DNA from: Escherichia coli
Lineage (GTDB): Bacteria; Pseudomonadota; Gammaproteobacteria; Enterobacterales; Enterobacteriaceae
Assembly: GCF_003334385.1 (NCBI RefSeq)
Contig: NZ_QOWN01000018.1
Direction: 5' to 3' (one strand)
Length of the DNA: 64,000 bases
Shown here: positions 6,560-49,072 of the stretch, piece after piece
Layout: every line of letters starts with the position of its first letter
Position numbering within the stretch: position 1 is the first letter of the stretch
The notes under the pieces: model-generated
Database searches by the model: none
What the model was told of the DNA's origin: nothing
Seen by the model: the letters and a program-made list of their open reading frames with translations, nothing else
Program-made: the position numbers and the translations under genes

Positions 6560-6610
6560 TAATCTCTATGCTCCGGCTGAAGGGATGTTTTTGCCGGACA
6601 CAAAGGATAA

Positions 6611-13365: not shown

Positions 13366-13782
13366 TCAGATCGAAATCTTTTTACCGCCGCGATGGGTTG
13401 TTGAGGTCTGACCGTTCGCCCCATATAGCGTCGGTTCCTGATGCGGTTTCAACATTTCCAGCGCCTGTTGATTGCGCTCAATCTGTCCTTCCAGTAACCA
13501 GCCGTTATGTTGATTCATTTGGCGTAGTTGCTGCGTTTTCACAGTAATTTCCTGCCAGCGTTGACTAATATCAACGCTATTTGCTGTATTGGGTTCTTTC
13601 CTGCGTAACTGTTCGAGGTAATCCAGCGTCGCCAGCAGTGAGCTTTTTTGTTCTGTAATCCATTGCAACTGGCTGCCGTTGATCTGCCCCATAGAGAGAT
13701 GTTGCTGCTCTTGATCCATTACCGTTTTGAGATCGTTAAGCACAGCGGACATCTGGTCGAGGATCTCTGCAAGACGTGTCAT
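13366..13782 (-). CDS. flgN: Flagellar export chaperone for FlgK/FlgL
   Basis: ORF track 138 aa. Confidence 0.9.
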   Translation of the reverse strand: MTRLAEILDQMSAVLNDLKTVMDQEQQHLSMGQINGSQLQWITEQKSSLLATLDYLEQLRRKEPNTANSVDISQRWQEITVKTQQLRQMNQHNGWLLEGQIERNQQALEMLKPHQEPTLYGANGQTSTTHRGGKKISI

Positions 13783-13786
13783 ACGA

Positions 13787-14080
13787 TCAGTTACTCTGCA
13801 AGTCTTGCTGCGCTTCGTTGATCAGCGCATCGGCAATTTTGCCGGTGTCCATTTTTAGTTCACCGTTACGAATCGCCAGTTTTAACGCTTCGACACGTTC
13901 AAGATTGATATCACTGCTGCCGGGTTGCATCAGTTTTGCTTGCGCGTCGCTTAACGTCACACTGGTGCTGGTGGAGGCGGTTGTTTTTGCCGCCCGGCTG
14001 TTCGTTACCGGCGCGTCAGTGGTTTCGCGCGGTTGAACGGTGCTTACAGGCTTCAGAGGCGAAGTGCGATCAATACTCAT
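13787..14080 (-). CDS. flgM: Anti-sigma-28 factor
   Basis: ORF track 97 aa. Confidence 0.9.
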
Positions 14081-14123
14081 GGTTTATTCCTCATTGAGGG
14101 CGCTTTTATCATGTGTTGCTTAT

Positions 14124-14150
14124 TTATCGGCAAGGGACGGGTAATCTTTA
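14124..14150 (-). promoter_or_regulatory. Sigma-28 (FliA) class 3 promoter for flgMN
   Basis: Minus strand reads TAAAGATT-N11-GCCGATAA, close to consensus TAAAGTTT-N11-GCCGATAA; in the 75-bp gap between the flgA stop and the flgM start. Confidence 0.8.
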
Positions 14151-14155
14151 ACAGC

Positions 14156-14815
14156 TTACAGGTTTATAAGAATATTCCCATCTGCATCAACAACGCCGCT
14201 GACTACCTGTCCCGATACCATGCGCACCCGCGCATTCTGTGCGACGGCTGCATTGTTCAGCGCCTGACCTTCTGCGTTGGCGCTAAACCCATCACCGCTG
14301 GCGATCACATTGACGCGTTGTCCCGCTTTTACCCGCCATGCCTGGCGAAACTGGGTTAACTGGATAGGTTGATCGGGTGATAGATCGCGCAGGCTAATGG
14401 CATCAACAAGTTGATTGATATCCAGCACCGTACGCGGTGGCAGGGTATCCAGCCGTCCGCGTTTCAGTTTGACATTGCCAGCTTCCAGCTTTCCTCCCCG
14501 CGCAATGGGCATCGCGGCAACCACATAATTTCCTGTGGCCTGTACATTAACCTGTAAATATCGTTTGTCGTTACCGCAGCGTGCCAACACATTCACATTG
14601 CCCCACAGGCGGGAATTATTGCTCATCGAAAGCAATGGCTGCTCGCATGGCGGTAGTAGATTGGGCGCTGTACGAATAGAAACACGAACCTCATCACTTA
14701 CCCCCGCGAGTTGGGCGCTAAAAAAGTTGTGCAATTGCGATGTGAGATTGCTCGCCGTACTTAACGGACTGAACAGTATCGCGATGATCGCCACGCTACG
14801 TTTTATTATCAGCAT
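14156..14815 (-). CDS. flgA: Flagellar P-ring assembly chaperone
   Basis: ORF track 219 aa with signal peptide. Confidence 0.9.
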   Translation of the reverse strand: MLIIKRSVAIIAILFSPLSTASNLTSQLHNFFSAQLAGVSDEVRVSIRTAPNLLPPCEQPLLSMSNNSRLWGNVNVLARCGNDKRYLQVNVQATGNYVVAAMPIARGGKLEAGNVKLKRGRLDTLPPRTVLDINQLVDAISLRDLSPDQPIQLTQFRQAWRVKAGQRVNVIASGDGFSANAEGQALNNAAVAQNARVRMVSGQVVSGVVDADGNILINL

Positions 14816-14969
14816 TTTCGCCCCCAGCCATTTCTACAACGTGAATTGTACCTGTCCGCAATGACCATCAACGGCATAAATAGCGACCCATTTTGCGTTT
14901 ATTCCGCCGATAACGCGCGCGTAAAGGCATTTAAGCTGATGGCAGAATTTTGATACCTGCGGAGGAGAT
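14816..14969. promoter_or_regulatory. Divergent flgA / flgB class 2 promoter region with candidate FlhD4C2 box elements
   Basis: 154-bp divergent intergenic region; AAATAGCG (14878-14885) and GATAACG (14909-14915) resemble FlhDC box half-sites as recalled. Confidence 0.5.
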
Positions 14970-15805: not shown

Positions 15806-16501
15806 ATGTCCATTGCGGTAACCACCACCGATCCGACAAATACCGGCGTCAGTACCACCAGCAGTAGTTCGCTCACGGGCAGCAACGCCGCAGATTTACA
15901 AAGCAGTTTTCTGACTTTGCTGGTGGCGCAGCTGAAAAACCAGGACCCGACCAATCCAATGGAAAACAACGAGCTGACGTCGCAATTGGCACAAATCAGC
16001 ACGGTCAGCGGGATTGAAAAACTCAATACCACGCTCGGATCTATTTCCGGACAGATTGATAACAGCCAGTCGTTACAGGCCAGTAACCTGATCGGTCACG
16101 GCGTGATGATCCCCGGCACCACTGTTCTTGCGGGAACCGGCAGTGAAGAAGGGGCTGTGACCACGACCACGCCGTTTGGTGTTGAGCTGCAACAGGCGGC
16201 AGACAAAGTTACGGCCACCATCACCGATAAAAATGGCGCGGTTGTGCGCACCATTGATATTGGTGAACTGACCGCCGGAGTTCACAGTTTCACCTGGGAC
16301 GGTACGTTGACTGATGGCAGCACTGCGCCGAACGGTTCTTACAATGTAGCGATTAGCGCCAGTAACGGTGGTACACAACTGGTTGCCCAGCCGCTGCAGT
16401 TTGCTCTGGTGCAGGGTGTGATCCGCGGCAACAGCGGTAATACGCTGGATCTCGGCACTTACGGCACCACCACCCTCGACGAAGTACGGCAGATAATTTA
16501 A
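15806..16501 (+). CDS. flgD: Flagellar hook capping/assembly protein FlgD
   Basis: ORF track 231 aa. Confidence 0.95.
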   Translation: MSIAVTTTDPTNTGVSTTSSSSLTGSNAADLQSSFLTLLVAQLKNQDPTNPMENNELTSQLAQISTVSGIEKLNTTLGSISGQIDNSQSLQASNLIGHGVMIPGTTVLAGTGSEEGAVTTTTPFGVELQQAADKVTATITDKNGAVVRTIDIGELTAGVHSFTWDGTLTDGSTAPNGSYNVAISASNGGTQLVAQPLQFALVQGVIRGNSGNTLDLGTYGTTTLDEVRQII

Positions 16502-22269: not shown

Positions 22270-22296
22270 TCAAGTCCGGCGGGTCGCTGCCGATAA
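22270..22296 (+). promoter_or_regulatory. Sigma-28 (FliA) class 3 promoter for flgKL
   Basis: TCAAGTCC-N11-GCCGATAA; perfect -10 element, 5 of 8 matches in the -35; 34 bp upstream of the flgK ATG. Confidence 0.7.
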
Positions 22297-22329
22297 TACT
22301 CTGTAATTGAAGGCTTATAAGGAACCTCC

Positions 22330-37251: not shown

Positions 37252-38061
37252 ATGTTCTTAATTAACGGTCATAAGCAGGAATCGCTGGCAGTAAGCGATC
37301 GGGCAACGCAGTTTGGTGATGGTTGTTTTACCACCGCCAGAGTTATCGACGGTAAAGTCAGTTTGTTATCGGCGCATATCCAGCGACTACAGGATGCTTG
37401 TCAGCGGTTGATGATTTCCTGTGACTTCTGGCCTCAGCTTGAACAAGAGATGAAAACGCTGGCAGCAGAACAGCAAAATGGTGTGCTGAAAGTCGTGATC
37501 AGTCGCGGTAGTGGCGGGCGAGGGTACAGCACATTGAACAGCGGACCGGCAACGCGGATTCTCTCCGTTACGGCTTATCCTGCACATTACGACCGTTTGC
37601 GTAACGAGGGGATTACGTTGGCGCTAAGCCCGGTGCGGCTGGGGCGCAATCCTCATCTTGCAGGTATTAAACATCTCAATCGTCTTGAGCAAGTATTGAT
37701 TCGCTCTCATCTTGAGCAGACAAACGCTGATGAGGCGCTGGTCCTTGACAGCGAAGGGTGGGTTACGGAATGCTGTGCGGCTAATTTGTTCTGGCGGAAG
37801 GGCAACGTAGTTTATACGCCGCGACTGGATCAGGCAGGTGTTAACGGCATTATGCGACAATTCTGTATCCGTTTGCTGGCACAATCCTCTTATCAGCTTG
37901 TCGAAGTGCAAGCCTCTCTGGAAGAGTCGTTGCAGGCAGATGAGATGGTTATTTGTAATGCGTTAATGCCAGTGATGCCCGTATGTGCCTGTGGCGATGT
38001 CTCCTTTTCGTCAGCAACGTTATATGAATATTTAGCCCCACTTTGTGAGCGCCCGAATTAG
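37252..38061 (+). CDS. pabC: Aminodeoxychorismate lyase
   Basis: ORF track 269 aa. Confidence 0.95.

Positions 38062-47231: not shown

Positions 47232-49072
<1,841 letters not shown>

Follow-up and report, generated by a model that had tools for sequence, protein, structure and literature searches.

The regulatory loop of FliA and its inhibitor FlgM is a classic checkpoint that links assembly to transcription. The class 3 flgM promoter of Salmonella reportedly goes back to work of Gillen and Hughes from 1993.

The Salmonella flgM promoter has also been dissected by mutation (Wozniak and Hughes, 2008, as cited in passages of Hollands et al., PMC2859248), and overlapping flgAMN and flgMN operons have been described for this organism and are supported by E. 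coli data (Fitzgerald et al., 2014, PMC4183435). In E. coli K-12, flgMN belongs to eight well-characterised sigma-28 promoters (Hollands et al., PMC2859248), and flgM is marked as a RegulonDB target of RpoF (Shimada et al., 2017, PMC5493296). Here, we analyzed a stretch of 64,000 nucleotides of E. coli DNA, in the following called the window, with a focus on a site in the gap between flgA and flgM. This site is almost certainly PflgM, the sigma-28 (FliA)-dependent class 3 promoter of the E. coli flgMN operon. PflgM is already known from the literature and from databases and is not novel under any reading.

Gene context of the flgA-flgM gap

The order of the genes in this part of the window is murJ on the plus strand, then flgN, flgM and flgA on the minus strand, and then flgB onward again on the plus strand. 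A 1.7-kb region covering flgN, flgM and flgA matches E. coli K-12 MG1655 at 100% identity, and the gene names were confirmed by the MG1655 annotation. In detail, the surroundings of the promoter consist of the following features:

13366..13782, minus strand: flgN coding sequence, co-transcribed with flgM (open reading frame and MG1655 annotation; flgMN operon named in PMC4183435)

13787..14080, minus strand: flgM coding sequence, anti-sigma-28 factor of 97 amino acids (open reading frame; MG1655 annotation at 100% identity)

14156..14815, minus strand: flgA coding sequence, upstream class 2 gene reading through into flgMN (open reading frame and MG1655 annotation; no terminator-like site before flgM)

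14816..14969, no strand given: divergent flgA/flgB class 2 control region, FlhDC-activated, sigma-70 (published FlhDC ChIP-seq peak)

The gap between flgA and flgM has a length of 75 nt, with the flgA stop codon at 14158..14156 and the flgM ATG at 14080.

Sequence of the promoter and match to the consensus

The initial annotation had placed the pattern TAAAGATT-N11-GCCGATAA on the minus strand at 14124-14150 and called it nearly identical to the FliA consensus. On re-reading, the coordinates were exact, and direct reading of the minus strand at 14124..14150 gave TAAAGATT-N11-GCCGATAA in the context ...ctgTAAgctgt TAAAGATT acccgtccctt GCCGATAA ataagcaac... The promoter can be divided into three parts:

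14143..14150, minus strand: -35 octamer TAAAGATT of PflgM (sequence read and pattern match; the FliA ChIP-seq motif published for flgMN begins with these 8 nt)

14132..14142, minus strand: 11-nt spacer ACCCGTCCCTT (length fixed and sequence free across orthologs)

14124..14131, minus strand: -10 octamer GCCGATAA, composed of the extended -10 GC and the core CGATAA (sequence read and pattern match)

The site lies wholly inside the flgA-flgM gap, in the orientation of flgM and 5 nt past the stop codon of flgA. Between the last base of the -10 octamer and the flgM ATG there are 43 nt, which read ataagcaacacatgataaaagcgccctcaatgaggaataaacc on the minus strand. A comparison with the sigma-28 consensus TAAAGTTT-N11-GCCGATAA, which is described together with its composite -10 element by Koo et al. 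(2009, as cited in passages of PMC2859248), revealed agreement at 15 of 16 positions and a spacing of exactly 11 nt, so that the claimed near-identity holds with a single mismatch, an A in place of T at position 6 of the -35 element.

The exact pattern TAAAGATT-N11-GCCGATAA occurs only once in the window and in none of 100 dinucleotide-preserving shuffles. Other matches to the consensus appear in the window only at three mismatches, and the known flgK promoter is among them. According to hand arithmetic, the chance of at most one mismatch in 16 bases is 49/4^16, or about 1.1e-8 per position, which corresponds to about 0.0015 expected chance matches in 128,000 positions.

Weight-matrix scan for FliA sites

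A position weight matrix scan had been proposed in the initial annotation as a check of the promoter, and we ran it with a FliA matrix based on the 52 ChIP-seq motifs of Fitzgerald et al. (2014, Table 2) minus the two sites located in the window, which leaves 50 motifs. The 28-mer at 14123..14150 on the minus strand reached 24.8 bits (background mean -20.0, sd 8.3). This is the top score on both strands, or about 128,000 positions, and the runner-up with 18.2 bits is 6.6 bits lower, which makes PflgM the best FliA site of the window. Among the 52 published FliA sites PflgM would rank second, and only tar would be placed higher.

A second FliA promoter of the window was found by pattern and weight-matrix matches:

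22270..22297, plus strand: PflgK, TCAAGTCC-N11-GCCGATAA (same 28-mer published for flgKL)

The flgKL 28-mer has a FliA ChIP-seq score of 47, given as FAT (fold-above-threshold; PMC4183435). The -35 element of PflgK is far weaker than that of flgM, yet the ChIP-seq scores of both are close (47 versus 48). A further match, CAAAGTTA-N11-ACCGATAA at 16204-16231 on the plus strand, lies inside flgD and scored 16.5-18 bits, about equal to the genuine flgK promoter; it is absent among the 52 published FliA ChIP-seq sites. The same applies to comparable matrix matches at 37840-37867 (minus strand) and 47979-48006 (plus strand), which are also absent from the ChIP-seq list.

Conservation in E. coli and across Enterobacteriaceae

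All 5426 complete E. coli genomes contain the 1.7-kb region, and the 90-nt segment with promoter and leader was found at an identity of at least 95% in 5426 of 5426. In the most divergent among the matches listed (95.6%), the changes affect spacer, leader and upstream flank and leave both octamers untouched. Five of the flgN-flgM-flgA matches lie on plasmid-labelled records, and ten records are just 80-90% identical over the 1.7 kb; these may represent replicons with a wrong label or diverged lineages of Escherichia.

For a broader comparison, one genome per species was scanned, which yielded 80 loci for close relatives of FlgM, spread over about 20 genera of the Enterobacteriaceae. In the 78 loci with enough upstream sequence, the best matrix match upstream of flgM was the orthologous site, with scores of 18-25 bits. 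Exactly one TAAAG-N14-GCCGA was present in each flgM upstream region (79 of 79, the 78 loci plus the window), and the spacer had a length of 11 nt in all of them. The blocks TAAAG and TGCCGAT were invariant with 2.0 bits per column in 67 distinct ortholog sequences, the columns of spacer and leader reached just 0.2-1.4 bits, and the promoter blocks are conserved more than the surrounding non-coding DNA of the orthologous loci. Two constant blocks with constant spacing and a freely varying spacer sequence are what one expects of a two-element promoter. As both blocks are invariant in about 20 genera while the spacer drifts, we argue for strong purifying selection on promoter function.

FliA binding and FliA-dependent expression

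The same 28-mer, TAAAGATTACCCGTCCCTTGCCGATAAA, has been published as the FliA ChIP-seq motif of flgMN with a FAT score of 48, compared to 57 for tar and 47 for flgKL (Fitzgerald, Bonocora and Wade, 2014, PMC4183435). Genomic SELEX with the RpoF holoenzyme revealed a peak with an intensity of 15.0 in the spacer between flgM and flgA (Shimada et al., 2017, PMC5493296), sigma-F holoenzyme shifts a pflgM fragment in a gel-shift assay (2024 protocol paper, PMC11310293), and a sigma-28 ChIP-chip signal extends over the flgM region (Cho et al., 2014). ChIP-seq, SELEX and gel shift on the same DNA thus bear out the initial reading as a sigma-28 site. Furthermore, a sigma-28 reporter of Barembruch and Hengge was based on the flgM promoter and showed growth-phase-dependent activity (as cited in passages of PMC2859248). 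It has also been published that overexpression of FliA in an flhD deletion strain restores the expression of flgM, but not of flgA, which points to a FliA-sufficient start downstream of flgA. Taken together, published experiments on the identical sequence show that the site is occupied by FliA and can be driven by it.

The contribution of FliA to the amount of flgM RNA is a different matter. Deletion of fliA in motile MG1655 changed flgM RNA from 451 to 318, a difference not flagged as significant in the RNA-seq data, and the authors regard the FliA contribution to dual-regulated transcripts as very small under their conditions (PMC4183435). We assume that the effect of the fliA deletion on flgM is masked by class 2 read-through. 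Given the decrease from 451 to just 318, the class 2 route seems to be dominant in the tested conditions, and the strictly conserved promoter speaks for a role of the class 3 route in other conditions.

Class 2 and class 3 transcription of flgMN

The initial annotation had proposed that the class 3 promoter comes in addition to read-through from the class 2 flgA promoter and had connected this with the feedback loop of FlgM and FliA. Both proposals are in line with the available data. The overlapping operons flgAMN (class 2) and flgMN (class 3) are textbook knowledge, and the centre of a FlhDC ChIP-seq peak at 1130152 in NC_000913.2 falls into the spacer between flgA and flgB, at about 14879 of the window (the offset between window and NC_000913.2 is about 1115273 and was derived from two FliA motif centres). 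In an flhD deletion the expression of flgAMN decreased from 319 to 3, and flgAMN is listed as a FlhDC-dependent operon. No terminator-like hairpin followed by a T-run was found on the minus strand of the flgA-flgM gap (14081..14155), in agreement with read-through that begins at the flgA promoter. As for the feedback, FliA transcribes here the gene of its own inhibitor FlgM.

Based on these data the following order of events can be proposed. FliA-RNA polymerase would recognise TAAAGATT via region 4 of the sigma factor and GCCGATAA, with its extended -10 GC and CGATAA core, via regions 2 and 3, contacts that are transferred to PflgM by analogy with work on other sigma-28 promoters. With the two blocks held 11 nt apart, transcription would start at about 14116, and the resulting flgMN mRNA would carry a leader of about 36 nt. 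The flgAMN transcript is also made from the FlhDC-activated, sigma-70 class 2 promoter upstream of flgA and provides an earlier supply of FlgM, which sequesters FliA until the hook-basal body exports FlgM. Since FlgM holds FliA until its export, FliA-driven transcription of flgM closes a negative feedback on FliA activity.

Transcription start of the class 3 transcript

The start was expected in the initial annotation near 14116 on the minus strand, and our placement is as follows:

14116..14119, minus strand: probable class 3 start, most likely the A at 14116 (construct, motif-centre offset and aer geometry)

In detail, Romilly et al. (2020, PMC7549644) describe a flgM::gfp construct of "nucleotides +1 to 105" with the fusion behind the first 23 codons. 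By implication, the leader has a length of 36 nt and the +1 is located at 14116, which corresponds to about 1129389 in NC_000913.2 and about 1130167 in NC_000913.3. In well-characterised FliA promoters the motif centre and the start are 18-22 bp apart (Fitzgerald et al., bioRxiv 10.1101/188474), and applied to PflgM this offset gives 14114-14118. The aer promoter carries CGA at -11 to -9 (PMC2859248), and the transfer of this geometry places the +1 at 14118. On account of construct, offset and aer geometry, the exact +1 of the class 3 flgM transcript is probably located within 14116-14119. A 2024 protocol paper states that the elements of the E. coli flgM promoter were inferred from sequence only and never mapped (PMC11310293).

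The sole start tabulated for flgM;flgN by Cho et al. (2014, Table S6) is 1129417 on the minus strand of NC_000913.2, with 21 reads and an assignment to sigma-70. It corresponds to about 14144 in the window (14143-14146), a position within the -35 octamer, and differs from the start expected for sigma-28. The dataset has been criticised for many false positives and negatives (Fitzgerald et al., PMC4183435), and the motif assignments in Table S6 are very permissive. For these reasons, and as no sigma-70-like promoter lies upstream, we give little weight to this start. The 5' end at 14143-14146 (minus strand) may be a processing site or noise. In a literature search we found no comparison of starts between fliA-plus and fliA-minus E. 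coli at nucleotide resolution; a full-text search for flgM together with dRNA-seq returned only papers on organisms other than E. coli, and the Cappable-seq supplements, which are possibly incomplete, contain no entry near the expected flgM start. The expectation of a start near 14116 agrees with the position implied by the construct and with the offset of other FliA promoters, but not with the sole tabulated start at about 14144.

Leader of flgM

Downstream of the probable start, two further features belong to the leader:

14081..14115, minus strand: remainder of the class 3 flgM leader downstream of the probable +1 (36 nt including the +1; sequence read)

14088..14092, minus strand: Shine-Dalgarno sequence GAGGA (preceded by CCTC at 14096..14099)

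The element CCTC-N3-GAGG (14089-14099) overlaps the Shine-Dalgarno sequence and is invariant in 25 of 25 aligned genera-level sequences with variable loop bases, and also in all 23 long-leader orthologs, in which no covariation was observed. A structured leader was considered and rejected: the consensus fold of the 23 long-leader orthologs consists of just the 4-bp CCUC/GAGG hairpin, free of covariation. The E. coli leader together with the first codons folds at -8.3 kcal/mol (z = +0.98 versus shuffled sequences) and is not predicted to have extra structure, and the CCTC/GAGG hairpin lies outside the minimum-energy fold of E. coli and is not predicted to be stable there. Because of the weak E. 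coli fold and the covariation-free consensus fold, we do not claim a regulatory structure.

The distance from the -10 octamer to the ATG is 43-45 nt in Escherichia and in four Buttiauxella loci and 57-66 nt in the other genera, and the class 3 leader of Escherichia is about 16-17 nt shorter than that of most other Enterobacteriaceae. A GC-rich stretch of about 17 nt, with the potential for short hairpins in some genera, is missing in Escherichia; a conserved stem in this stretch is not supported by the consensus fold. It is conceivable, but improbable, that E. coli controls class 3 flgM in a different way than Salmonella, either by leader-dependent translation or by a competing overlapping sigma-70 start. 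A study from 2020 indicates that post-transcriptional control also acts on the class 3 transcript just past the promoter, at 14054-14080 on the minus strand.

We also searched for a known RNA family in the flgA-flgM gap and discarded this possibility, as the only Rfam matches of the whole window at the gathering threshold are the RNase E 5' UTR element rne5 (28344-28680, minus strand), the small RNA SraB (30541-30709, plus strand) and the PyrC leader (6560-6609, minus strand). The small RNA FlgO, whose reported source is the flgL 3' UTR and which would be expected just past about 24938, gave no Rfam match.

Discussion

Three other explanations have to be weighed against the assignment as the class 3 promoter of flgMN. 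A chance look-alike without promoter function has a negligible probability. It is true that consensus matches can occur randomly and that the ChIP-seq list does not include the matrix matches at 16204, 37840 and 47979, but only about 0.0015 matches of this quality are expected by chance, none of the 100 shuffles contained the pattern, the two-block pattern is present in 79 of 79 orthologous loci, and FliA binding was shown in vivo and in vitro on the same DNA. A chance occurrence is therefore ruled out by statistics, conservation and published binding and expression data. More plausible, although still unlikely, is that the site binds the FliA holoenzyme and is functionally minor, with flgMN transcribed mostly by read-through from flgA and the sigma-28 promoter relevant only in special states, for example at very high free FliA or during flagellar repair. 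The expression data point in this direction, as flgM falls only from 451 to 318 without fliA (not flagged as significant) whereas flgAMN falls from 319 to 3 without flhD, and the authors of these data grade the input of FliA to dual-regulated transcripts as very little (PMC4183435). On the other hand, both blocks are invariant in about 20 genera with a drifting spacer, and the flgM promoter served Barembruch and Hengge as a growth-phase-dependent sigma-28 reporter (as cited in passages of PMC2859248). Moreover, a minor role is a matter of degree and is compatible with the assignment as a promoter.

The third explanation assumes a second, FliA-independent start at about 14144. It would be driven by a weak sigma-70 promoter at the 3' end of flgA, with both holoenzymes competing at the same place. 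This is in line with the start at 1129417 (minus strand, 21 reads, assigned to sigma-70) in Table S6 of Cho et al. (2014) and with the ChIP signals for sigma-70 and for sigma-28, which both cover the region in the same study. However, a consensus scan of the minus strand revealed no sigma-70-like promoter, and the best -10 element found by eye, TAAGCT at 14158..14153, has no acceptable -35 element. The read count is low, the motif assignment is permissive, the dataset was criticised by Fitzgerald et al. (PMC4183435), and processing of the flgAMN read-through RNA would explain the 5' end equally well. We consider such a second start as very doubtful and rejected the weak by-eye candidates for a sigma-70 promoter behind 14144 (TAAGCT at 14158-14153 and TTGATG-N16-TATAAA at 14190-14163). 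The assignment as the sigma-28-dependent class 3 promoter of flgMN is retained.

The importance of PflgM lies in the closure of the FliA-FlgM loop, which ties late flagellar expression to the completion of the hook-basal body. As a FliA-bound promoter of identical sequence is already on record, the site adds nothing new here. Its value is that of a positive control, because site, strand and partner promoter were named correctly from the sequence alone, together with a probable start.

Comparison with known systems

The closest described system is flgMp of E. coli K-12 (Park et al., 2001; Fitzgerald et al., 2014; Shimada et al., 2017), which is the same object with a letter-identical 28-mer. 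The class 3 PflgM of Salmonella enterica is located at the orthologous position after the flgA stop codon, has the same -35 element TAAAGATT and the same 11-nt spacing, and is embedded in a dual class 2 and class 3 operon layout as in E. coli. The two differ in the -10 element, which is GCCGATGA in the Salmonella subspecies of our set and GCCGATAA in E. coli, and in the distance from the -10 element to the ATG, which is 59 nt in Salmonella versus 43 nt in E. coli, so that the Salmonella leader is about 16 nt longer. Within E. coli, the promoters of tar, motA, fliC, tsr, yhjH and flgK share the TAAAGTTT-N11-GCCGATAA architecture and are also occupied by FliA in ChIP-seq experiments. In the dependence on FliA, flgM stands apart from the pure class 3 genes, which collapse without fliA (tar from 251 to 0 and fliC from 2319 to 11), whereas flgM decreases from 451 to 318.
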